From NCBI RefSeq assembly GCF_036507355.1, contig NZ_AP027877.1: a DNA stretch of 64,000 nt; one strand, written 5' to 3'. How positions within the stretch are numbered: position 1 is the first letter of the stretch; every line of letters starts with the position of its first letter. The position numbers and the translations under genes were made by a program. The DNA comes from Escherichia coli. Its GTDB lineage: Bacteria > Pseudomonadota > Gammaproteobacteria > Enterobacterales > Enterobacteriaceae. The notes beneath the pieces were generated by a model that searched no databases, was not told the DNA's origin, and was given only the letters and a program-made list of their open reading frames with translations. Positions 18,479 to 49,267 of the stretch are shown one piece after another.

Positions 18479-19246
18479 GGTAATGACTCCAACTTATTGA
18501 TAGTGTTTTATGTTCAGATAATGCCCGATGACTTTGTCATGCAGCTCCACCGATTTTGAGAACGACAGCGACTTCCGTCCCAGCCGTGCCAGGTGCTGCC
18601 TCAGATTCAGGTTATGCCGCTCAATTCGCTGCGTATATCGCTTGCTGATTACGTGCAGCTTTCCCTTCAGGCGGGATTCATACAGCGGCCAGCCATCCGT
18701 CATCCATATCACCACGTCAAAGGGTGACAGCAGGCTCATAAGATGCCCCAGCGTCGCCATCGTGCGTTCACCGAATACGTGCGCAACAACCGTCTTCCGG
18801 AGCCTGTCATACGCGTAAAACAGCCAGCGCTGGCGCGATTTAGCCCCGACATAGCCCCACTGTTCGTCCATTTCCGCGCAGACGATGACGTCACTGCCCG
18901 GCTGTATGCGCGAGGTTACCGACTGCGGCCTGAGTTTTTTAAGTGACGTAAAATCGTGTTGAGGCCAACGCCCATAATGCGGGCTGTTGCCCGGCATCCA
19001 ACGCCATTCATGGCCATATCAATGATTTTCTGGTGCGTACCGGGTTGAGAAGCGGTGTAAGTGAACTGCAGTTGCCATGTTTTACGGCAGTGAGAGCAGA
19101 GATAGCGCTGATGTCCGGCGGTGCTTTTGCCGTTACGCACCACCCCGTCAGTAGCTGAACAGGAGGGACAGCTGATAGAAACAGAAGCCACTGGAGCACC
19201 TCAAAAACACCATCATACACTAAATCAGTAAGTTGGCAGCATCACC
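18479..19246 (-). mobile_element. insAB: IS1 (768 bp), copy 1, minus orientation; insA 18916..19191, insB' 18494..18997
   Basis: Both terminal inverted repeats recognised (GGTGATGCTGCCAACTTACTGAT… and …AAGTTGGAGTCATTACC); InsA/InsB ORFs; flanking 9-mers differ (attagatcg vs cacgtcggt), so no target-site duplication. Confidence 0.9.
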
Positions 19247-21479
19247 CACGTCGGTATCAGCCGTTTTGTTTGTGTTGCTAAATGCAATCGAACGGCTACT
19301 GTCAAGGTTGTGAACGTCATAACGCAATGCGTTATTCCAGTTCATGCCGTTGTCGAAGGACATCTGATGTTTCAGGCCAAAGAACTGGCTATAACCACCT
19401 GTGACGCCATTATCACCCGCTTTCTGCGCACCATCACCATCGAGACGAGCGATACCGTATTCCAGGCTCATGCTCTGGCTTTCGCTCAGGTCAACGGTTT
19501 TACGCAGTGCCAGCATGTCATACTCGGTGTTATTTCCGAGTTCCTCACGCGGGTCACCTTTCGCCACCACGTTAAAGGCCAGGCCATTGCCCACCTTCGG
19601 CGCGGCATCCGCCAGCATGCTGAAGCGGTTGCTTAACATACGCGCTTCACGGAATACCGTGGTCGCCTGGCTACCGCTCACCTGCTTCAGGGCGCTATTC
19701 AGTTCAGCAGTGGTGCCCACGTTCAGGCTGGTATACAGCTCGTTATTGGTGTAACCCGCATCCAGTGCCTTCGCCACATCGTTCACCGAAGCATCGGTCG
19801 CCACATCGGTGTAGGCGTTTTTGCTCATGATGACGTCAACGTTGCCGCTGGCATCGGTGCTGCCTTTGGCGGTCCATACCACGGACGTTGAGGTGATGGC
19901 ATCGGCGTCGGTCAGGTTGATGCCTTCCACCACGTTGTCGAAACTGACCGTGGTGTCTGCCGTACCGGCGGCGAAACCGGTGTTGATCCCGACACCATTC
20001 ATGCTGGCGTTGTTGACCTTCAGTTTACCGGCGCTGCCGTCAACGTTGGTACCGACGATATAGCCGTTGAGGTTGTTACTGCTGCCATCGCTACTACCGC
20101 TATCAGTCGTTTCACTGAAAGGTGAAGTGGTGTAAGTGTTTGGCATGTCCGGCAACGTGTAGTCGGTGTAATGCACTTCGGTATTGTTACCGCTGTTGCC
20201 GTTCACCCCTTCCACATTCACGCTGTCGCCCTGCTTAATCAACCCCGAACCAGTCACGCCGTCGGCAATCACCACCGTACCGTTGTTAACGATATGACCT
20301 TCTGTGCCCAGTACGCTGAACGCAAACGAGTCGTTAGCAAAAATATTGATCGTGCCGTTGTTCTCAATTACCGCATCGGCGGTGGCATTGGCATCCAGTT
20401 GCATACCAGTCAATCCGGTATCGGTGGTGCCTTCGGTACCGAGATTGATAACACCGTTGTTAACCAGCTGTGCGTTTTTATCGCCTTCCATCGCCACGGC
20501 GTTGTTGCCGCTGATGTTCATTACACCATCGTTGAGAGCAACATAGTTGTTGTGGGTGAATTTAACCGCGCTGGCGTTGTCTTTATCGAAGTTAATTACC
20601 CCGCCATCCTGGTTCCACAAGAAGGCATCGCTTTCTGTCGCACCGGCAGTACTTACCGCCACGGTGACTTTCGCATCCACCACGCCCTTGTTAATAAACT
20701 GGCTGGCGCCATCGTCATAGTGAATAGCGCCCGCACCTAATGCGGCATCCAGCGTCATTTCACCGGTGTTATATAACGTGGCGTTAGCATTGCTGCCCTG
20801 GAAGCGAATGGCGTTTTTGCTGTTATCAAGGATGAGTTTGCCGCTGTTGTTGAACGTTGACTTATCGTCAATATCCAGCGTCCCGGCATTGTTGTTTTCA
20901 TCCTGATAACCCATTTTCCAGGTACCCGCGTTATTCACTACCGCAGAGTTATAGAGAATCGCGCCTTTACGCGCCTCGCCGCCTGCAAGGTTATTGAATA
21001 CCGCATCGCCCTGAGCGTTAACGCGCGCCGACGCAATACCGCTGTTATTCACCGTACCATCGTGAAGTTGTAAAGTTGACAGGGAACCGGTGTTATTAAT
21101 TACCGCGTTGCTGTTTTTCTCAATTTTTACGACGTCATTAAGCGTTCCGTTGTTATTGAAGGTCCCTCCTTCCAAAGTCACCGTGTTCAATACACCTTCA
21201 TTGGTTAACGCACCGCCTGCATTCACGACGATGGCTGAGCTAATGGTTCCGCTCGACTCGTTAACCAGCGCACCATTTTCGAGTATCCTGATCGTTCCAT
21301 TTTTAACAGCACCCGCACTGGTGACATCCCCGTTGATAATCGCACCAGACGATAATAATACGGTCTCACCCGCAGAACTTAATACATCGCCATCATCATA
21401 CAAATCGGCGATATAATTATCCGTCGGATTATATTCATCGGCCCCCTGGCAAACCCCAAAGGTACAAATGGTGCCATAG
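19247..21479 (-). pseudogene. ydbA: Internal fragment of autotransporter adhesin passenger domain (ydbA-like)
   Basis: Asn/Gly/Thr-rich beta-helix-type repeats (…NNGTLN…VNNSG…). The apparent start (TTG) and last 8 codons (GDAANLLI*) are encoded by IS1 ends, so this is not an intact gene. Confidence 0.7.
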
Positions 21480-22247
21480 GGTGATGCTGCCAACTTACTG
21501 ATTTAGTGTATGATGGTGTTTTTGAGGTGCTCCAGTGGCTTCTGTTTCTATCAGCTGTCCCTCCTGTTCAGCTACTGACGGGGTGGTGCGTAACGGCAAA
21601 AGCACCGCCGGACATCAGCGCTATCTCTGCTCTCACTGCCGTAAAACATGGCAACTGCAGTTCACTTACACCGCTTCTCAACCCGGTACGCACCAGAAAA
21701 TCATTGATATGGCCATGAATGGCGTTGGATGCCGGGCAACAGCCCGCATTATGGGCGTTGGCCTCAACACGATTTTACGTCACTTAAAAAACTCAGGCCG
21801 CAGTCGGTAACCTCGCGCATACAGCCGGGCAGTGACGTCATCGTCTGCGCGGAAATGGACGAACAGTGGGGCTATGTCGGGGCTAAATCGCGCCAGCGCT
21901 GGCTGTTTTACGCGTATGACAGGCTCCGGAAGACGGTTGTTGCGCACGTATTCGGTGAACGCACGATGGCGACGCTGGGGCGTCTTATGAGCCTGCTGTC
22001 ACCCTTTGACGTGGTGATATGGATGACGGATGGCTGGCCGCTGTATGAATCCCGCCTGAAGGGAAAGCTGCACGTAATCAGCAAGCGATATACGCAGCGA
22101 ATTGAGCGGCATAACCTGAATCTGAGGCAGCACCTGGCACGGCTGGGACGGAAGTCGCTGTCGTTCTCAAAATCGGTGGAGCTGCATGACAAAGTCATCG
22201 GGCATTATCTGAACATAAAACACTATCAATAAGTTGGAGTCATTACC
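21480..22247 (+). mobile_element. insAB: IS1 (768 bp), copy 2, plus orientation; insA 21535..21810, insB' 21729..22232
   Basis: Terminal IRs at both ends; flanking 9-mers differ (gtgccatag vs ctggactta); inverted relative to copy 1. Confidence 0.9.
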
Positions 22248-22357
22248 CTGGACTTACGTGTTTTTTCGGTTGAGTCGGGTATTGAAGTATCCGCAGCCCA
22301 TGTCTGGCTACTTAACGCCATGGCAACACAAACAGACAATAATTTTTTCCTTTGCAT
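22248..22357 (-). pseudogene. ydbA: 5' end of autotransporter gene (signal peptide) cut by IS1
   Basis: Minus-strand ATG at 22355-22357 gives MQRKKLLSVCVAMALSSQTWAADTSIPDSTEKT… (signal peptide) and runs into IS1 copy 2 after about 36 codons. Confidence 0.55.
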
Positions 22358-22764
22358 ATAAAATTCCTTAGATCTAGACCGTGCGTAACAAGCCATGCAG
22401 AATTTGAAGATAAATCGTAGTAAATATTCATAGTGAAATAAGCAATAAAGAAATGCTTATATAATTCACAAAATCAATATTAAAATCAGGCAAGTAAAAG
22501 CATACAAAAAAACAGTTGATGGAATTATATTCCACAAAAAACTCACTTCAATCTAAAAATTAACGACAAAAAACAAAAACACACTAATAATTCATTGACG
22601 CTGCATATATATTTTGTGATTACATATATATTGGTAATGATTTGTTATTTAAGGGAAGGATATATAAGGTTTTTGTAGAAATATCCACGGTAATTAAGCA
22701 TGCTAACGTCAGTTTAAATACTGTAAAAGATCATTAATAGATACATTTTGTAGCCAACTATAAT

Positions 22765-23091
22765 TTATTTGCGCAACCATTTACCATTAATTCCCTGAAC
22801 ATATTGCCCCGACTTCGCGCGAGCAACAAGCTTTTGTCCAGCCAGTTTGGCTATCTCTTTAGTGGATACATTATTTTGCTTTGCCAGTTGTTGGTAACTA
22901 TGGTTACGAGCTTCATTAATATCTTTTACTAATGCCTGTGTTTCGGCATCCGTTTGTAGCGCCACCAGGTAACCGTTAAGCGTTTCACCTACCCGCCCCT
23001 GACTTCTGGCTTCGTTCAGGGTTAAAGCCATTGCACTGTCGCTCATCAGGCCAATGGCCCATACAGCTATGAGTAATGTTCTTTTCATCAT
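22765..23091 (-). CDS. ydbL: DUF1318-family periplasmic protein
   Basis: Start chosen at the internal Met giving a 108-aa signal-peptide protein (MKRTLLIAVWAIGLMSDSAMA…); last gene of ydbH-ynbE-ydbL. Confidence 0.7.
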   Translation of the reverse strand: MMKRTLLIAVWAIGLMSDSAMALTLNEARSQGRVGETLNGYLVALQTDAETQALVKDINEARNHSYQQLAKQNNVSTKEIAKLAGQKLVARAKSGQYVQGINGKWLRK

Positions 23092-38862: not shown

Positions 38863-40120
38863 TGATCCTACCCACGTAATATGGACACAGGCCTAAGCGA
38901 GGTTCTGGTTTTCAAATTGTTCCGGACTGAGGCCGCCACACCAACTGTGCCGCCGCCACCGATTGTAATCACATTCGATATAATTAAACACCGTTGCCCG
39001 CATTATTTCCCGGCTGATAAAGTGTTCTCCATGGATACATTCCACTTTCAGCGAATGAAAGAAGCTTTCCACGCAGGCATTATCGTAGCAGCAACCTTTT
39101 GCGCTCATACTTCCACGCAGATTATGCCGCTTCAGTTGCGCCTGATAATCTGCTGAACAGTACTGGCCTCCACGGTCCGTGTGAACGATAACGTTCCGGG
39201 GCCTCTTACGCCGCCACAGCGCCATCTGCAGGGCATCGCAGGCCAGTTGCGCCGTCATGCGTGGCGACATTGACCAGCCAATAACGGCACGTGACCACAG
39301 GTCAATGACCACTGCCAGATACAGCCAGCCTTCATCTGTACGTAAGTACGTGATGTCTCCTGCCCACTTCTGGTTCGGGCCACTGGCGTAAAAATCCTGC
39401 TCCAACAGATTTTCTGACACAGGCAGGCCGTGTGCGCGGTAGCTGACCGGGCTGAACTTCCGGGAGGCCTTTGCCCTCAGTCCCTGACGGCGCAGGCTTG
39501 CCGCCACGGTTTTTACGTTAAAGGGGTAACCCTGAGCACGCAGTTCATCCGTCAGGCGTGGGGCACCGTAACGCTGTTTTGACCGGGTAAAAGCCGCGAG
39601 GACAACGCTGTCGCAGTGTTGGCGGAACTGCTGACGCGTGCTTATCCTTGTCCGCCGCTGACACCACGTATACCAGCCGCTGCGGGCCACCCGGAGCACG
39701 CGGCACATTGCTTTGATGCTGAACTCAGCCTGATGTTTTTCAATAAAGACATACTTCATTTCAGGCGCTTCGCGAAGTATGTCGCGGCCTTTTGGAGGAT
39801 AGCCAGCTCTTCATCCCGTTCTGCCAGCTGGCGTTTGAGACGTGCAATCTCGGTAGACATCTCCAGTTCACGTTCAGAAGACGTCTGCTGATTTTGCTGT
39901 TTACTGCGCCAGTTGTAGAGCTGTGATTCATACAGGCTGAGTTCACGGGCTGCGGCAGTAACACCGATGCGTTCAGCAAGCTTCAGGGCTTCACTGCGAA
40001 ATTCAGGCGAATGCTGTTTACGGGGTTTTTTACTGGTTGATACTGTTTTTGTCATGTGAGTCACCTCTGACTGAGAGTTTACTCACTTAGCCGCGTGTCC
40101 ACTATTGCTGGGTAAGATCA
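38863..40120 (-). mobile_element. insEF: IS3 (1258 bp); insE/orfA 39756..40055, insF/orfB 38893..39759
   Basis: Terminal IRs TGATCCTACCCACGTAATATGGACAC… and …GTGTCCACTATTGCTGGGTAAGATCA; orfA/orfB transposase pair; flanking triplets differ, so no 3-bp target duplication. Confidence 0.9.
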
Positions 40121-40270
40121 CCGGACGCAACTGAACATCATCAGGACACGCAGCCGCTGGATGCTCAGTCACAGGTAAATTCTGTTGATGCGAAATATCA
40201 GGAACTGCGGGCAGAACTCCATGAAGCCCGGAAAAACATTCCATCAAAAAATCCTGTCGATGCCGATAAA

Positions 40271-41500
40271 TTGCTTGCTGCATCACGTGGTGAATTTGTT
40301 GACGGAATTAGCGACCCGAACGATCCGAAATGGGTAAAGGGGATCCAGACTCGCGATTGTGTGTACCAGAACCAGCCAGAAACGGAAAAAACCAGCCCAG
40401 ATATGAATCAACCTGAGCCAGTAGTGCAACAGGAACCGGAAATAGCCTGCAATGCCTGCGGCCAGACTGGCGGGGATAACTGCCCTGACTGTGGTGCGGT
40501 GATGGGCGACGCAACATACCAGGAAACATTCGATGAAGAGAGTCAGGTTGAAGCTAAGGAAAATGATCCGGAGGAAATGGAAGGCGCTGAACATCCGCAC
40601 AATGAGAATGCTGGCAGCGATCCGCATCGCGATTGCAGTGATGAAACTGGCGAAGTCGCAGATCCCGTAATCGTAGAAGACATAGAGCCAGGTATTTATT
40701 ACGGAATTTCGAATGAGAATTACCACGCGGGTCCCGGTATCAGTAAGTCTCAGCTCGATGACATTGCTGATACTCCGGCACTATATTTGTGGCGTAAAAA
40801 TGCCCCCGTGGACACCACAAAGACAAAAACGCTCGATTTAGGAACTGCTTTCCACTGCCGGGTACTTGAACCGGAAGAATTCAGTAACCGCTTTATCGTA
40901 GCACCTGAATTTAACCGCCGTACAAACGCCGGAAAAGAAGAAGAGAAAGCGTTTCTGATGGAATGCGCAAGCACAGGAAAAACGGTTATCACTGCGGAAG
41001 AAGGCCGGAAAATTGAACTCATGTATCAAAGCGTTATGGCTTTGCCGCTGGGGCAATGGCTTGTTGAAAGCGCCGGACACGCTGAATCATCAATTTACTG
41101 GGAAGATCCTGAAACAGGAATTTTGTGTCGGTGCCGTCCGGACAAAATTATCCCTGAATTTCACTGGATCATGGACGTGAAAACTACGGCGGATATTCAA
41201 CGATTCAAAACCGCTTATTACGACTACCGCTATCACGTTCAGGATGCATTCTACAGTGACGGTTATGAAGCACAGTTTGGAGTGCAGCCAACTTTCGTTT
41301 TTCTGGTTGCCAGCACAACTATTGAATGCGGACGTTATCCGGTTGAAATTTTCATGATGGGCGAAGAAGCAAAACTGGCAGGTCAACAGGAATATCACCG
41401 CAATCTGCGAACCCTGTCTGACTGCCTGAATACCGATGAATGGCCAGCTATTAAGACATTATCACTGCCCCGCTGGGCTAAGGAATATGCAAATGACTAA
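40271..41500 (+). CDS. recE: Exonuclease VIII (RecE) C-terminal portion, N-terminal part of gene missing
   Basis: 409-aa ORF ending …[12 protein letters not shown] just upstream of recT and beginning shortly after the IS3 end; contains the nuclease-domain region. Confidence 0.7.
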
Positions 41501-42302
41501 GCAACCACCAATCGCAAAAGCCGATCTGCAAAAAACTCAGGGAAACCGTGCACCAGCAGCAGTTAAAAATAGCGACGTGATTAGTTTTATTAACCAGCCA
41601 TCAATGAAAGAGCAACTGGCAGCAGCTCTTCCACGCCATATGACGGCTGAACGTATGATCCGTATCGCCACCACAGAAATTCGTAAAGTTCCGGCGTTAG
41701 GAAACTGTGACACTATGAGTTTTGTCAGTGCGATCGTACAGTGTTCACAGCTCGGACTTGAGCCAGGTAGCGCCCTCGGTCATGCATATTTACTGCCTTT
41801 TGGTAATAAAAACGAAAAGAGCGGTAAAAAGAACGTTCAGCTAATCATTGGCTATCGCGGCATGATTGATCTGGCTCGCCGTTCTGGTCAAATCGCCAGC
41901 CTGTCAGCCCGTGTTGTCCGTGAAGGTGACGAGTTTAGCTTCGAATTTGGCCTTGATGAAAAGTTAATACACCGCCCGGGAGAAAACGAAGATGCCCCGG
42001 TTACCCACGTCTATGCTGTCGCAAGACTGAAAGACGGAGGTACTCAGTTTGAAGTTATGACGCGCAAACAGATTGAGCTGGTGCGCAGCCTGAGTAAAGC
42101 TGGTAATAACGGGCCGTGGGTAACTCACTGGGAAGAAATGGCAAAGAAAACGGCTATTCGTCGCCTGTTCAAATATCTGCCCGTATCAATTGAGATCCAG
42201 CGTGCAGTATCAATGGATGAAAAGGAACCACTGACAATCGATCCTGCAGATTCCTCTGTATTAACCGGGGAATACAGTGTAATCGATAATTCAGAGGAAT
42301 AA
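41493..42302 (+). CDS. recT: Single-strand annealing recombinase RecT
   Basis: 269-aa ORF from the internal ATG ([29 protein letters not shown]…), overlapping the recE stop. Confidence 0.85.
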
Positions 42303-42346
42303 TTCAGCCTGGCGGTGTAATGCACCGCCAACTTGAAATATTTTTT

Positions 42347-43330
42347 ATGAGAAAAATTATGAGATATGACAATGTTGGTGATGCTGCCAACTTACTGATT
42401 TAGTGTATGATGGTGTTTTTGAGGTGCTCCAGTGGCTTCTGTTTCTATCAGCTGTCCCTCCTGTTCAGCTACTGACGGGGTGGTGCGTAACGGCAAAAGC
42501 ACCGCCGGACATCAGCGCTATCTCTGCTCTCACTGCCGTAAAACATGGCAACTGCAGTTCACTTACACCGCTTCTCAACCCGGTACGCACCAGAAAATCA
42601 TTGATATGGCCATGAATGGCGTTGGATGCCGGGCAACAGCCCGCATTATGGGCATTGGCCTCAACACGATTTTACGTCACTTAAAAAACTCAGGCCGCAG
42701 TCGGTAACCTCGCGCATACAGCCGGGCAGTGACGTCATCGTCTGCGCGGAAATGGACGAACAGTGGGGCTATGTCGGGGCTAAATCGCGCCAGCGCTGGC
42801 TGTTTTACGCGTATGACAGGCTCCGGAAGACGGTTGTTGCGCACGTATTCGGTGAACGCACGATGGCGACGCTGGGGCGTCTTATGAGCCTGCTGTCACC
42901 CTTTGACGTGGTGATATGGATGACGGATGGCTGGCCGCTGTATGAATCCCGCCTGAAGGGAAAGCTGCACGTAATCAGCAAGCGATATACGCAGCGAATT
43001 GAGCGGCATAACCTGAATCTGAGGCAGCACCTGGCACGGCTGGGACGGAAGTCGCTGTCGTTCTCAAAATCGGTGGAGCTGCATGACAAAGTCATCGGGC
43101 ATTATCTGAACATAAAACACTATCAATAAGTTGGAGTCATTACCGACAATGTTAAACCATGTCCATTTTGTGGTTGTCCATCAGTAACGGTGAAAGCCAT
43201 TTCAGGATATTACCGAGCGAAGTGTAACGGATGCGAATCCCGAACCGGTTATGGTGGAAGTGAAAAAGAAGCACTCGAAAGATGGAATAAACGAACCACT
43301 GGAAATAATAATGGAGGTGTTCATGTATAA
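42347..43330 (+). pseudogene. ralR: lar/ralR (restriction alleviation; type I TA toxin) interrupted by IS1
   Basis: 5' codons (MRKIMRYDNV) at 42347..42376 and the remainder (…KPCPFCGCPSVTVKAISGYYRAKCNGCESRTGYGGSEKEALERWNKRTTGNNNGGVHV*) at 43145..43330, separated by IS1 with a duplicated GACAATGTT. Confidence 0.7.
42377..43144 (+). mobile_element. insAB: IS1 (768 bp), copy 3, simple insertion; insA 42432..42707, insB' 42626..43129
   Basis: Terminal IRs present; perfect 9-bp target-site duplication GACAATGTT at 42368..42376 and 43145..43153. Confidence 0.9.
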
Positions 43331-43532
43331 AATTACCGCCACTATTGAAAAGGAAGGTGGCACTCCTACTAACTGGACAAGATATTCAAAATCTAAACTA
43401 ACGAAATCAGAATGCGAAAAAATGCTCTCAGGTAAAAAAGAAGCAGGCGTTTCCAGAGAGCAGAAAGTAAAACTGATAAATTTTAATTGCGAGAAACTTC
43501 AGTCCTCGAGAATTGCATTGTATTCAAATTAA
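43323..43532 (+). CDS. ydaC: Small prophage protein
   Basis: 69-aa ORF MYKITATIEKEGGTPTNWTRYSKSK… whose start overlaps the lar stop; symbol from position between lar and xisR. Confidence 0.6.
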   Translation: MYKITATIEKEGGTPTNWTRYSKSKLTKSECEKMLSGKKEAGVSREQKVKLINFNCEKLQSSRIALYSN

Positions 43533-43610
43533 AACTTCATAGCTGATTATTAATAATCAACATCGGGCGTCAATTTCAGTCTAACATTGGCGCCTGCCAG
43601 AGGTGATGCG

Positions 43611-43826
43611 ATGGCACAAGTAATCTTTAATGAAGAGTGGATGGTTGAATACGGCCTGATGCTTCGCACTGGTCTGGGGGCCAGACAAATTGAAGCATAC
43701 CGCCAGAACTGTTGGGTGGAGGGCTTCCACTTCAAACGAGTATCTCCTTTAGGTAAGCCAGACAGCAAACGAGGGATTATCTGGTACAACTATCCAAAGA
43801 TAAATCAGTTTATCAAAGACTCATGA
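43611..43826 (+). CDS. xisR: Prophage excisionase
   Basis: 71-aa ORF from the internal ATG ([17 protein letters not shown]…) immediately upstream of the integrase. Confidence 0.7.
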
Positions 43827-43827
43827 T

Positions 43828-45063
43828 ATGTCTAAATTACCAACAGGTGTCGAGATTAGAGGTAGATACATTCGCATCTGGTTCATGTTTCGAGGAAAAC
43901 GATGTCGGGAAACATTAAAAGGCTGGGAGATTACAAACAGTAATATTAAAAAGGCCGGAAATTTAAGAGCGCTGATAGTTCATGAAATAAACTCCGGTGA
44001 ATTTGAGTATTTAAGACGTTTTCCCCAGTCCAGCACTGGGGCAAAAATGGTGACAACGAGAGTCATAAAAACGTTCGGAGAGCTTTGTGATATCTGGACA
44101 AAAATTAAAGAGACAGAGTTAACAACAAACACAATGAAGAAAACGAAATCACAATTAAAAACACTCAGAATAATAATTTGTGAAAGTACCCCGATATCAC
44201 ATATTCGTTATAGCGATATCTTAAACTACCGGAATGAACTGCTGCATGGAGAAACGCTTTACCTGGATAATCCAAGATCCAACAAAAAAGGAAGAACCGT
44301 GCGCACAGTTGATAACTATATCGCCCTGCTCTGTTCGCTGTTGCGTTTTGCGTATCAGTCGGGATTTATATCAACCAAACCATTTGAAGGAGTAAAAAAA
44401 TTACAGCGAAACAGAATAAAGCCTGATCCGTTATCTAAAACAGAATTCAATGCATTAATGGAAAGTGAAAAAGGACAGAGCCAGAACTTGTGGAAATTTG
44501 CCGTTTACTCAGGACTTCGTCACGGGGAACTGGCAGCTCTGGCGTGGGAGGATGTGGATCTCGAAAAGGGAATAGTGAATGTCAGAAGAAACCTGACGAT
44601 ACTTGATATGTTCGGTCCCCCAAAAACAAATGCCGGGATCCGAACAGTAACACTACTGCAGCCTGCTCTTGAAGCACTGAAGGAGCAATACAAACTGACC
44701 GGGCATCATCGCAAAAGCGAAATCACCTTTTATCATCGGGAGTACGGCAGAACCGAAAAGCAAAAACTGCATTTTGTTTTCATGCCCAGGGTGTGTAACG
44801 GAAAACAAAAACCTTATTACTCGGTAAGCAGTTTGGGGGCAAGGTGGAATGCAGCAGTAAAACGTGCTGGTATTCGCCGCCGTAATCCGTACCATACGCG
44901 GCATACTTTTGCCTGCTGGCTGTTGACGGCAGGAGCGAACCCGGCATTTATAGCCAGCCAAATGGGGCATGAAACTGCGCAGATGGTGTATGAAATTTAC
45001 GGTATGTGGATTGATGACATGAACGACGAACAGATAGCCATGTTGAATGCGCGGTTATCGTAG
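43828..45063 (+). CDS. intR: Prophage tyrosine integrase
   Basis: 411-aa ORF with the C-terminal catalytic tyrosine-recombinase region (…HTRHTFACWLLTAGANP…QMGHET…MVYEIY…). Confidence 0.85.
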   Translation: MSKLPTGVEIRGRYIRIWFMFRGKRCRETLKGWEITNSNIKKAGNLRALIVHEINSGEFEYLRRFPQSSTGAKMVTTRVIKTFGELCDIWTKIKETELTTNTMKKTKSQLKTLRIIICESTPISHIRYSDILNYRNELLHGETLYLDNPRSNKKGRTVRTVDNYIALLCSLLRFAYQSGFISTKPFEGVKKLQRNRIKPDPLSKTEFNALMESEKGQSQNLWKFAVYSGLRHGELAALAWEDVDLEKGIVNVRRNLTILDMFGPPKTNAGIRTVTLLQPALEALKEQYKLTGHHRKSEITFYHREYGRTEKQKLHFVFMPRVCNGKQKPYYSVSSLGARWNAAVKRAGIRRRNPYHTRHTFACWLLTAGANPAFIASQMGHETAQMVYEIYGMWIDDMNDEQIAMLNARLS

Positions 45064-45114
45064 TTGCAAAGTTTGCCCCCAATTTGCCCCATTTAGTACC
45101 AGGGAACTGAAATA

Positions 45115-46050
45115 ATGCAAGAAAATCAACAAATTACAAAGAAAGAACAATACAACCTGAACAAATTACAAAAACGCCTGCGTCGTAACGTGGGCGAAGC
45201 CATTGCTGACTTCAATATGATTGAAGAAGGCGATCGCATCATGGTTTGCCTCTCCGGGGGTAAAGACAGCTATACCATGCTGGAGATTCTGCGCAATTTG
45301 CAGCAAAGCGCGCCAATCAATTTTTCGCTGGTGGCTGTTAACCTCGATCAAAAGCAACCGGGCTTCCCGGAACACGTTCTGCCCGAGTATCTTGAAAAGC
45401 TGGGCGTTGAGTACAAGATTGTTGAAGAGAACACTTACGGTATCGTGAAAGAGAAGATTCCAGAGGGCAAAACCACTTGCTCACTGTGTTCTCGGCTACG
45501 TCGCGGTATCCTTTATCGCACCGCAACGGAACTGGGGGCGACGAAGATCGCGCTGGGTCACCATCGTGACGATATCCTGCAAACGCTGTTCTTAAATATG
45601 TTCTACGGCGGCAAGATGAAAGGTATGCCTCCGAAATTGATGAGCGATGATGGCAAACATATCGTGATTCGTCCGCTGGCCTACTGCCGCGAGAAAGATA
45701 TTCAGCGCTTTGCCGATGCAAAAGCGTTCCCGATTATTCCGTGCAACCTGTGCGGTTCACAGCCTAACCTGCAACGTCAGGTGATTGCTGACATGTTGCG
45801 TGACTGGGATAAACGTTATCCGGGGCGTATCGAGACGATGTTCAGCGCGATGCAGAATGTGGTGCCATCGCATCTGTGCGATACCAACCTGTTCGATTTT
45901 AAAGGCATTACCCACGGTTCTGAAGTGGTTAACGGGGGTGATCTGGCGTTTGATCGCGAAGAGATCCCACTACAACCGGCGGGCTGGCAGCCAGAAGAAG
46001 ATGAAAATCAGTTGGATGAGTTACGGCTGAATGTGGTTGAAGTGAAATAA
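45115..46050 (+). CDS. ttcA: tRNA 2-thiocytidine(32) synthetase
   Basis: 311-aa ORF with PP-loop (…[11 protein letters not shown]…) and Cys clusters. Confidence 0.85.
45140..45165. repeat. Prophage att core, int-proximal copy inside the 5' end of ttcA
   Basis: aaagaaagaacaatacaacctgaacaa matches 33982..34007. Confidence 0.75.
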
Positions 46051-46057
46051 CCAGGAT

Positions 46058-46135
46058 AGCGCCCGATGCGCAAGCGTATCGGGCTACTCTTATGGAGGCC
46101 GGATAAGACGCGGCCAGCGTCGCATCCGGCAATCC
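46058..46135. repeat. REP (palindromic unit) elements downstream of ttcA
   Basis: gcccgatgcgcaagcgtatcgggc and gccggataagacgcggccagcgtcgcatccggc palindromes typical of enterobacterial REP. Confidence 0.7.
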
Positions 46136-46178
46136 CGAATAAGATGTTTACTCTTGCACCCGGCAATTCAACATTTCA

Positions 46179-47552
46179 TTATTTTAATAACCGCACCCGG
46201 CACGTTTTTCCTTTAATCTTCCCGCCCTGTAACTGTTTCCATGCTTTATGAGCAACAGCCTGACGGACCGCGACATAGACATGCGCCGGATGCACGGCGA
46301 TTTTGCCAATATCTGCGCCATCAAGCCCGATATCTCCTGTCAGTGCACCTAATACATCACCCGGGCGCATTTTGGCTTTTTTCCCGCCATCGATACACAA
46401 CGTTGCCATTTCTGCTTCCAGCGTCACAATGGAACTATTAGCTGGCGGCGTTTGCCAGTTAAGTTTTATCTGCAACATGTCAGAAATGATATTGGCCCGC
46501 TGTGCTTCTTCCGGAGCACAGAAACTGATCGCCAGACCGCTATTTCCTGCACGAGCTGTACGACCGATGCGATGTACATGAACTTCAGGGTCCCACGCCA
46601 GCTCAAAGTTCACCACCAGCTCAAGCGATTTAATATCCAGACCACGCGCAGCAACATCAGTCGCGACCAGTACACGGGCGCTACCGTTAGCAAAACGTAC
46701 CAGGGTCTGATCGCGATCGCGTTGCTCCAAATCGCCGTGTAATGACAATGCACTTTGCCCTACTTCATTCAGCGCGTCGCAGACAGCCTGGCAATCTTTT
46801 TTGGTATTGCAAAACACCACGCAAGAGGATGGCTGATGCAAGCTTAATAACCGTTGCAACAGAGGAATTTTGCCTTTACTGGATGTCTCATAAAATTGTT
46901 GATCAATGGGTGGCAAAGCATCTGTTGAGTCAATTTCAATCGCCAAAGGATCGCGTTGCACTCGTCCGCTGATTGCAGCGATGGCTTCCGGCCAGGTTGC
47001 TGAAAACAGAAGCGTCTGTCGAGATGCAGGCGCAAAACGGATGACATCATCAATGGCATCGCTAAATCCCATATCCAGCATGCGGTCGGCCTCATCCATC
47101 ACCAAAGTATTCAGCGCATCCAGTGATACCGTGCCTTTTTGCAAGTGATCCAGCAAACGACCCGGCGTTGCCACGATAATATGCGGCGCATGTTGCAACG
47201 AATCACGCTGCATACCGAACGGTTGACCACCGCACAACGTCAAAATTTTGGTATTTGGCAGAAAACGCGCCAGCCGACGCAATTCACCTGCCACCTGATC
47301 CGCCAGTTCACGCGTAGGACACAGCACTAAAGCCTGGGTTTGAAATAGCGACGCATCAATTTGCTGTAACAAGCCGAGGCCAAAAGCCGCCGTTTTGCCG
47401 CTGCCGGTTTTCGCCTGCACGCGAACATCTTTTCCGGCAAGGATCGCCGGAAGCGCGGCGGCCTGCACCGGCGTCATGGTTAAATAACCCAACTCATTAA
47501 GGTTCGTGAGTTGGGCGGGAGGCAAAACATTCAGGGTAGAAAAAGCGGTCAC
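46179..47552 (-). CDS. dbpA: DEAD-box ATP-dependent RNA helicase (23S rRNA specific)
   Basis: 457-aa ORF with Walker A (AKTGSGKT), DEAD box (LVMDEADRML), SAT and HRIGRTAR motifs. Confidence 0.9.
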   Translation of the reverse strand: MTAFSTLNVLPPAQLTNLNELGYLTMTPVQAAALPAILAGKDVRVQAKTGSGKTAAFGLGLLQQIDASLFQTQALVLCPTRELADQVAGELRRLARFLPNTKILTLCGGQPFGMQRDSLQHAPHIIVATPGRLLDHLQKGTVSLDALNTLVMDEADRMLDMGFSDAIDDVIRFAPASRQTLLFSATWPEAIAAISGRVQRDPLAIEIDSTDALPPIDQQFYETSSKGKIPLLQRLLSLHQPSSCVVFCNTKKDCQAVCDALNEVGQSALSLHGDLEQRDRDQTLVRFANGSARVLVATDVAARGLDIKSLELVVNFELAWDPEVHVHRIGRTARAGNSGLAISFCAPEEAQRANIISDMLQIKLNWQTPPANSSIVTLEAEMATLCIDGGKKAKMRPGDVLGALTGDIGLDGADIGKIAVHPAHVYVAVRQAVAHKAWKQLQGGKIKGKTCRVRLLK

Positions 47553-47581
47553 AATCTATTCTCGTGGTCATCGACGCAAAG

Positions 47582-47755
47582 TTAGCAGGCGCGTATCCTC
47601 GCAGATCTACGCTCACGATGCGACAATTTAATCGGTTCTTCATCGGGTGGTGGGTCAGGCATGGGTTGCGGGCGAGGGATCGGATCGGGCACTGGAACAG
47701 GATCGCCAGGAATCGGTTCAGGGACAGGAATTTGCAAATAAATAAGTGTCGTCAT
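47582..47755 (-). CDS. Small proline-rich ORF (57 aa) immediately upstream of dbpA, unidentified
   Basis: Manual translation: MTTLIYLQIPVPEPIPGDPVPVPDPIPRPQPMPDPPPDEEPIKLSHRERRSARIRAC; GGAGGG Shine-Dalgarno about 5 nt upstream of the ATG; ends 30 nt before the dbpA start. Confidence 0.45.
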   Translation of the reverse strand: MTTLIYLQIPVPEPIPGDPVPVPDPIPRPQPMPDPPPDEEPIKLSHRERRSARIRAC

Positions 47756-47812
47756 ATTTCCCTCCGGTCATTGGGTGGACTCTTAAAGGGTAGACGCTGA
47801 TAAATAACAGGC

Positions 47813-47934
47813 AAAAAAAAGCCGACTCATCAAAGTCGGCGTCGTACGAATCAATTGTGCTATGCAGTAATTCAAAAAAGGAAGTAAGACAATATGGAGC
47901 GCAACGCCCATCGCTTGACGTTGCATTCACCTGC
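47813..47934 (-). ncRNA. fnrS: FnrS small RNA
   Basis: Minus strand reads GCAGGTGAATGCAACGTCAAGCGATGGGCGTTGCGCTCCATATTGTCTTACTTCCTTTTTTGAATTACTGCATAGCACAATTGATTCGTACGACGCCGACTTTGATGAGTCGGCTTTTTTTT, matching FnrS as I recall it, with terminal hairpin and T-run. Confidence 0.8.
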
Positions 47935-47969
47935 AAGAGAGATATTGCCCTGAATGGGTAGAGAGTTTA

Positions 47970-47983
47970 TTGACTTCGCTCAA
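47970..47983. promoter_or_regulatory. FNR-type binding site (TTGAC-N4-CTCAA) centred about 42 bp upstream of fnrS
   Basis: ttgacttcgctcaa palindrome resembling the FNR consensus TTGAT-N4-ATCAA, at the class II activation distance. Confidence 0.6.
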
Positions 47984-48029
47984 ACTTTGCGGCGTTTTTG
48001 TATACAGACAGCCGGAAAAATTGCTTTTG

Positions 48030-49034
<1,005 letters not shown>

Positions 49035-49267
49035 TTATTTTGTAGTCTAGCCTTCTGGCCCTGTTACGCAACATCTCATCACCCCATTACCCTGAAATGA
49101 TTAATAAAATTCTGTCTAAATTGAATACAAAAAGCAAAATGCTTTTCCGTATACAAACCGTGTGAAGTGTTAAATAGCGTCTATCATTATCAGAATTATC
49201 TGATCATATGACGAGGCTTTTTTGCGATCGGATAGCAACAAAAATTGATAAAAATAATGGGATCTCA

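Follow-up and report, generated by a model that had tools for sequence, protein, structure and literature searches.

The locus analysed here corresponds to the RalR/RalA type I toxin-antitoxin system of the Rac prophage of Escherichia coli. Its toxin RalR, a non-specific DNase, becomes toxic on overproduction, and only the antisense RNA RalA, acting together with Hfq, keeps it in check (Guo 2014, PMC4041452). RalA is a 179-nt Hfq-dependent sRNA whose gene lies antisense inside ydaC and which base-pairs with a 16-nt stretch in the coding part of ralR, and its neutralization, with Hfq, of RalR DNase toxicity is established for the K-12 allele (PMC4041452). Residues 37, 39, 49, 51 and 52 of RalR matter for toxicity, the changes that lower it include one at residue 14, and ΔralR and ΔralRA strains display raised fosfomycin sensitivity (Guo 2014, PMC4041452). 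Excision of the Rac prophage in K-12 is unaffected by deletion of either ralR or ralA (PMC4632033). Inactivation of chromosomal type I toxins by insertion sequences has precedents: PMC7232551, citing Pedersen & Gerdes 1999, describes it for the chromosomal hok loci of K-12 and for hokX of E. coli B. The reference length of IS1, the element of concern here, is 768 bp and its target duplications measure 8 or 9 bp (PMC12428005).

The window, by which we mean the whole 64,000-nucleotide stretch of DNA that was analysed, is a piece of E. coli chromosome in which the Rac prophage persists as a badly eroded remnant. A Shigella origin, suggested by three IS1 copies in 64 kb and by the lack of the junction among complete E. 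coli genomes, was rejected because the exact, lineage-specific HrpA allele (51 blocks) carries the label E. coli in NCBI and UniRef. The surviving Rac arm, intR-xisR-rcbA-ralR-recT-recE adjoining ttcA, has the gene order annotated in Ec1120 and AR_0061, and within it ralR is split by a copy of IS1 (Table 1). The account that we consider very likely as a whole is that of a simple IS1 insertion that produced a RalR-null allele and an orphan RalA, most likely in the course of neutral decay. In this account a structurally intact IS1 would have entered the 5' end of ralR in a simple transposition event, duplicating the 9-bp target GACAATGTT at codons 4-6, at a time later than the IS3 truncation of recE. 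RalR would thereby have been lost in active form, RalA would have been left as an orphan antitoxin, and the insertion would represent a neutral or near-neutral step, not an adaptive one, in the decay of a prophage that was already heavily eroded.

Table 1. Positions in the window of the interrupted ralR gene, the inserted IS1 and neighbouring features
Feature	Position	Strand	Remarks
Second IS1 copy	18479-19246	-	
Third IS1 copy	21480-22247	+	
IS3 truncating recE	38863-40120	-	break at 40120/40121
recE' ORF	40271-41500		matches exonuclease VIII profile positions 469-877
recT	41493-42302	+	intact, 269 aa; directly upstream of ralR
ralR 5' fragment, codons 1-6 (MRYDNV)	42359-42376	+	start according to Ec1120 and other annotation and Guo 2014
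Left copy of 9-bp duplication, GACAATGTT	42368-42376		ralR codons 4-6
IS1	42377-43144	+	exactly 768 bp, structurally intact
insA	42432-42707	+	intact, 91 aa
insB frame	42626-43129	+	open
A6C -1 frameshift motif	42683-42689	+	links insA and insB
Right copy of 9-bp duplication, GACAATGTT	43145-43153		
ralR 3' fragment, codons 7-64 and stop	43154-43330	+	without promoter, ribosome-binding site or start codon of its own
16-nt RalA target in ralR 3' fragment	43258-43273	+	as defined by Guo 2014
rcbA/ydaC	43323-43532	+	intact, 69 aa; NF007283, 141.6 bits; contains RalA antisense
RalA antitoxin sRNA	43329-43507	-	full length, 179 nt; Rfam RF02694
xisR (excisionase)	43611-43826	+	intact, 71 aa; annotated by homology
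intR (Rac integrase)	43828-45063	+	intact, 411 aa; adjoins ttcA

The terminal inverted repeats of the IS1 in ralR are imperfect (GGTGATGCTGCCAACTTACTGAT versus GGTAATGACTCCAACTTATTGAT, matching at 18 of 23 positions), and its frameshift motif, TTAAAAAAC, begins at IS position 305. The Pfam domains Zn_ribbon_InsA, HTH_Tnp_IS1 and DDE_Tnp_IS1 are all found well above cut-off, with InsA scoring 76.4 bits against PF03811 and 106.4 bits against PF12759 and the InsB frame scoring 261.3 bits against PF03400. When both strands of the 64-kb window were searched, GACAATGTT was found to occur only twice, each time abutting IS1, and the probability that two given flanking 9-mers are identical by chance is 4^-9, or ~4e-6. 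The initial annotation had described a perfect 9-bp duplication and this is what we find, the 9-mer being exact on both sides of the element and present as a single copy in Ec1120. A duplication of 9 bp fits the 8-or-9-bp range given for IS1 (PMC12428005). The target is AT-rich, at 70% over 25 bp on each side as against 52% window-wide.

IS1 cuts off the promoter region, the ribosome-binding site and codons 1-6 of ralR from the remaining 58. As it stands, the 5' stub reads into the element and ends after 14 aa (MRYDNVGDAANLLI, followed by a stop codon). The limits that the initial annotation had given are correct, position 43330 being the final base of the ralR stop codon and position 42347 an in-frame ATG that lies four codons 5' of the standard start at 42359 and would add MRKI. 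Gene callers place the ralR start variously, yielding products of 64, 68 or 77 aa. The break had been placed after codon 10, a count that holds from the ATG at 42347 but not from the standard start, from which the break falls between codons 6 and 7. A complete 64-aa RalR ORF is absent from the window as found and is present only after the precise in silico excision that the initial annotation had suggested: removal of IS1 and one copy of the repeat restores a 195-nt ORF that encodes MRYDNVKPCPFCGCPSVTVKAISGYYRAKCNGCESRTGYGGSEKEALERWNKRTTGNNNGGVHV and matches the annotated ralR of Ec1120, as well as that of 34 of the 81 fetched loci, at every nucleotide. The rebuilt ORF is a full 64-aa Lar_restr_allev reading frame, in agreement with the proposal that lar/ralR is the gene split by IS1, and its identity with natural alleles indicates that IS1 entered an allele that carried no other lesion.

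Comparison with Ec1120 resolves the insertion to the base. Ungapped alignment shows 5 mismatches in 3514 bp across window positions 38863-42376 and 42 mismatches in 5903 bp across positions 43145-49047, and the two aligned segments overlap by exactly 9 bp in Ec1120 (L040, 10398-10406), from which it follows that the target is present once in the empty site. The alignment breaks exactly at IS1 and nothing has been deleted, as expected of the clean simple insertion that had been proposed. These data also bear on a possible artefact of assembly, in which a copy of the repeat was put in the wrong place. IS1 is multicopy, with three copies in the window, and repeats are commonly misassembled; a misplaced repeat, however, would not produce a perfect duplicate of 9 bp that the empty site has only once, both flanks run collinear with Ec1120 base for base, and the copy in ralR has a private substitution relative to the two neighbouring copies. 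Together, the perfect duplication, the base-exact collinearity and the private SNP make an assembly artefact very unlikely, to the point that we regard it as scarcely credible.

The private substitution is a G-to-A change at window position 42654, which corresponds to IS1 position 278 (G278A) and sets the ralR copy apart from both other IS1 copies of the window. It replaces valine by isoleucine at InsA residue 75 (V75I), inside the stretch of residues 43-88 that matches HTH_Tnp_IS1. Relative to the ralR copy, the IS1 at 18479-19246 has 2 base differences and that at 21480-22247 has 1, and since G278A is private to the ralR copy, neither of these neighbours, in its present form, is an identical donor. 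The public collection has the InsA V75I variant in 161 blocks, at unrelated sites of which several are in the one genome CP151548.1, and the variant therefore marks a circulating IS1 sub-variant; none of the matches listed for it sits at ralR.

The two other IS1 copies, which are mutually inverted, had been contrasted with the one in ralR and the contrast is upheld: we sought a flanking duplication for these copies in every pairing of their ends and found no duplication, the best pairing matching at 4 of 9 bases. The lack of matching flanking 9-mers indicates that both copies underwent deletion or rearrangement. The 2.2 kb between them derive from the interior of a BigA-like autotransporter adhesin and correspond to profile positions 1239-1714 of the 1875 of NCBIfam NF033178. 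The 757-aa ORF between the two copies was also considered as tynA, which is of equal length, but it gave no match to the tynA region of AR_0061; it is a BigA-like autotransporter fragment. The right-hand junction of the IS1 pair (18479-22247) is not in any complete E. coli genome searched. Immediately right of the third IS1, 519 bp (22248-22766) lack both a long ORF and any match in the AR_0061 locus, and the ydbL-ynbE-ydbH genes that follow position 22766 are 86% identical to those of AR_0061, an unusually high divergence for E. coli core genes.

From the arrangement of the two ralR fragments we infer that RalR would not be made in active form and that the locus would be toxin-null. The 3' fragment contains no ATG, and its sole in-frame start, GTG 43190, would yield a remnant of 46 aa that is without residues 1-18 and hence without Cys9, Cys12 and Cys14. 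A RalR piece initiated at this GTG, or a fusion produced by read-through of the InsB stop, might in principle retain some function and still be a target of RalA: IS1 and ralR have the same orientation, the InsB-frame TAA at 43127-43129 shares its reading frame with the ralR 3' fragment and no further stop intervenes, and both the 16-nt RalA target and the toxicity residues 37, 39, 49, 51 and 52 (Guo 2014, PMC4041452) are retained in that fragment. Against PF14354 (Lar_restr_allev) the 46-aa remnant scores 24.6 bits, however, which is under the family cut-off of 28.6 bits, while intact RalR scores 53.5 bits, and the part that is gone, residues 1-18, contains the three cysteines and the residue 14 at which a change lowers toxicity. 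Read-through of a TAA stop is rare, and GTG 43190 is preceded neither by an ATG nor by an obvious Shine-Dalgarno sequence. A scan of the IS1 right end for a hybrid outward promoter detected no promoter-like site that passed, and the promoter of IS1 itself is extremely weak and repressed by InsA (PMC12428005). Low-level production of the 46-aa remnant by way of IS1 read-through or a hybrid promoter may occur; residual function of either product we consider highly improbable. That the insertion is a genuine event and the resulting allele a null is something we hold with high confidence. As a separate observation, a single base change in the InsB-frame TAA at 43127-43129 would fuse the InsB frame to RalR residues 7-64.

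The antitoxin side of the locus, which the initial annotation had not mentioned, is preserved. RalA matches RF02694 over model positions 1-179 with 225.1 bits (gathering score 170; E = 1.5e-54), and positions 63-78 of RalA pair with ralR 43258-43273 at 15 of 16 positions, G-U pairs included. This location fits the RalA 5' end that Guo 2014 mapped to 62 nt upstream of the repeat. With RalA and its 16-nt target intact while ralR is split, RalA is orphaned. The downstream genes ydaC, xisR and intR had been expected to remain intact, and as ORF sequences they do, the IntR allele of the window being a very common one (38,011 blocks of the public collection); unchanged expression, however, does not follow from the sequence. 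Indeed, the rcbA ATG overlaps the ralR stop codon, so that transcription entering by way of ralR must now cross IS1.

The remainder of the Rac remnant allows the insertion to be placed in a relative order of events. The junction between IS3 and recE' is present, at 99.7% identity, in 3 of the 5426 complete E. coli genomes, namely Ec1120, OY754416 and OY754389. Ec1120, the junction carrier that was inspected, has an intact ralR with a single copy of the 9-mer; its sharing of the IS3/recE' junction together with an intact ralR indicates that the IS3 insertion is older and that IS1 entered ralR later. The insertion had been called probably recent, and in a relative sense this is supported, as the three complete genomes that share the IS3/recE' junction and everything else that was searched are without it; beyond that relative sense the description has no support.

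On its far side, the IS3 of the window is directly followed by trkG, which implies that the early-region genes found around recE elsewhere (kilR, sieB and others) are missing. In Ec1120 it is a DUF977 gene that lies beyond IS3, and the difference between trkG and DUF977 at this position indicates that a second rearrangement happened at IS3. Divergence from Ec1120 is uneven, with 7 mismatches in ~5.4 kb from IS3 to the end of intR (38863-45063, IS1 excluded) and 40 mismatches in ~4 kb over ttcA-dbpA-zntB, which suggests that the Rac remnant and its flank may have acquired different histories through recombination. Among RefSeq complete genomes the best match to the right flank is 99.3% identical, and the lineage is not represented in that set. 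Located 3' of ttcA, a palindrome at 46097-46135 matches Rfam naRNA4 (RF02564) on both strands with 29 and 25 bits, scores so far below the gathering score of 59.5 that the match may be only a chance one.

The population survey of the empty site that the initial annotation had proposed finds the uninterrupted form to be widespread. The rebuilt 400-bp empty site has many natural counterparts in E. coli that are 100% identical to it, and at least 80% of it is covered in 1738 of 5426 complete genomes of this species; among the 1917 genomes that match at all, 1493 have a best match of at least 99% identity. Both filled junctions, in contrast, are absent from all 5426 complete genomes. Where the junction queries are covered to at least 80%, it is only by two-piece joins in which IS1 lies near ralR and not inside it. 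The filled-junction k-mers of ralR::IS1 are TTATGAGATATGACAATGTTGGTGATGCTGCC and GGAGTCATTACCGACAATGTTAAACCATGTCC. An exact 30-mer of the left junction has no match among metagenome contigs, and an exact 40-mer junction has none in species-representative genomes, a set that holds one genome per species and for this reason says little on variation within E. coli.

Neither junction was found in the 81 loci fetched by exact-protein look-ups, which would miss draft assemblies that break at IS1 copies. Among the matches listed for the IntR, RecT, DbpA, TrkG and OmpN alleles of the window (2,425 to 74,293 blocks), ralR is uninterrupted wherever the Rac region is present, and several of the DbpA and OmpN matches listed have no Rac at the site. 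Look-up of the IS3-truncated RecE, for which an ATG start was guessed, gave 91 blocks, with no IS1 in ralR among the matches listed, and look-up of the 46-aa truncated RalR gave 5 contigs, none of them with IS1. The literature that we searched likewise contained no report of an IS1 inserted in ralR.

The five public contigs recovered with the truncated RalR (L004-L008) have other lesions at the ralR 5' end, none of which involves IS1, and in each of them gene callers report only the 46-aa ralR remnant. In L004 a deletion joins the end of recT to ralR, in L007 a larger deletion affects the ralR 5' end, and in L005/L006 and L008 the 5' coding sequence of ralR is altered. Insertion sequences are also found elsewhere on the Rac arm. 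In MB51 an IS1 occupies the recT-ralR spacer and is bordered on its other side by a truncated dgcM, an arrangement that implies the absence of recT and recE; in B19695 an IS1 lies at truncated forms of rcbA and intR; recT is the site of an IS1 in GPEC1446 and of an IS3 in AR_0061. The Rac arm receives IS elements generally, without ralR being a specific target.

This distribution bears directly on whether the loss of RalR was selected, as it might have been if a DNase toxin became a liability after deletion of the prophage regulatory region or under weakened control by RalA/Hfq. The ralR::IS1 allele is a singleton, found in 0 of 5426 complete genomes of which at least 1738 keep the empty site, and a singleton is the opposite of what a recurrent sweep would leave. 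Moreover, most Rac carriers keep ralR, the truncated 46-aa call appears in only 5 contigs of a very large collection, and the IS elements of AR_0061, Ec1120, MB51, GPEC1446 and B19695 are scattered over the Rac arm without targeting ralR. In favour of selection, the interrupted allele carries no other lesion and the rest of the cassette, RalA included, is untouched; RalR is indeed a toxic DNase held only by RalA and Hfq (Guo 2014, PMC4041452), independent lesions of the ralR 5' end do occur in nature (L004, L007, L005/L006 and L008), and chromosomal type I toxins of the hok family are often IS-inactivated (PMC7232551). Fosfomycin tolerance is reduced in ΔralR strains, however (Guo 2014, PMC4041452), so that loss of RalR may carry a cost. 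On balance we consider selected loss, which the population data do not support, unlikely, and the insertion is most likely to have been a neutral or near-neutral event in the decay of the prophage.

In practical terms, the appropriate annotation of the locus is that of an IS1-interrupted ralR pseudogene plus an orphan sRNA, RalA, not that of a working type I toxin-antitoxin system, and beyond annotation the importance of the finding is small. The locus is a further instance in which insertion sequences erode a cryptic prophage and a chromosomal type I toxin gene. Naturally toxin-null and antitoxin-positive, it could serve as a background for testing whether phenotypes of rcbA/ydaC or RalA depend on RalR, and a slightly higher sensitivity to fosfomycin is predicted for the strain if the K-12 ΔralR phenotype carries over. 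A further idea, which we consider improbable, is that RalA or the rcbA/ydaC region might be kept and expressed for a role independent of RalR, candidates for which are the reported reduction of double-strand breaks and Hfq-mediated regulation of other mRNAs; in a weaker variant, IS1 would have been selected for removing a DNase toxin after loss of the regulatory region. If there were such a RalR-independent role, the strain would make it possible to tell apart two accounts of the rcbA phenotype that are at present confounded, namely that a protective product is lost and that RalR is derepressed.

Set beside described elements, the insertion is that of a typical IS1. Like the IS1A-like members of the family in E. 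coli K-12, it is 768 bp long, has imperfect terminal repeats and A6C-linked insA and insB, and it has entered an AT-rich target with a 9-bp duplication. Its setting resembles that in MB51, B19695, GPEC1446, AR_0061 and Ec1120, where an IS1 or IS3 likewise lies no more than a few hundred bases from ralR in a decaying Rac remnant by ttcA. In those five, however, the element sits in recE, recT, rcbA or a spacer and ralR is intact in 5 of 5, and in MB51, B19695 and GPEC1446 it marks the edge of a deletion, whereas in the window it is inside ralR and nothing has been deleted.

With the RalR/RalA type I system (PMC4041452) the locus shares the order recT-ralR-rcbA/ydaC-xisR-intR-ttcA and the antisense placement of RalA; the restored RalR is the common 64-aa allele, and RalA and the pairing elements are intact. 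It differs in that the toxin gene is split after codon 6, leaving an orphan antitoxin sRNA and a toxin 3' fragment without a start or promoter. The earlier remark that loss of toxin genes through IS insertion is a recurrent theme finds its precedent in the K-12 hok loci and in E. coli B hokX (Pedersen & Gerdes 1999, as cited in PMC7232551). The hok/sok loci and hokX resemble the present case in that a chromosomal type I toxin has been disabled by an insertion sequence and the rest of the locus has been kept, but Hok is a small membrane peptide encoded at another locus whereas RalR is a DNase, and the hok inactivations are fixed in laboratory lineages whereas ralR::IS1 is seen only in the window. 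The ralR::IS1 allele is therefore new as an instance and ordinary in kind.
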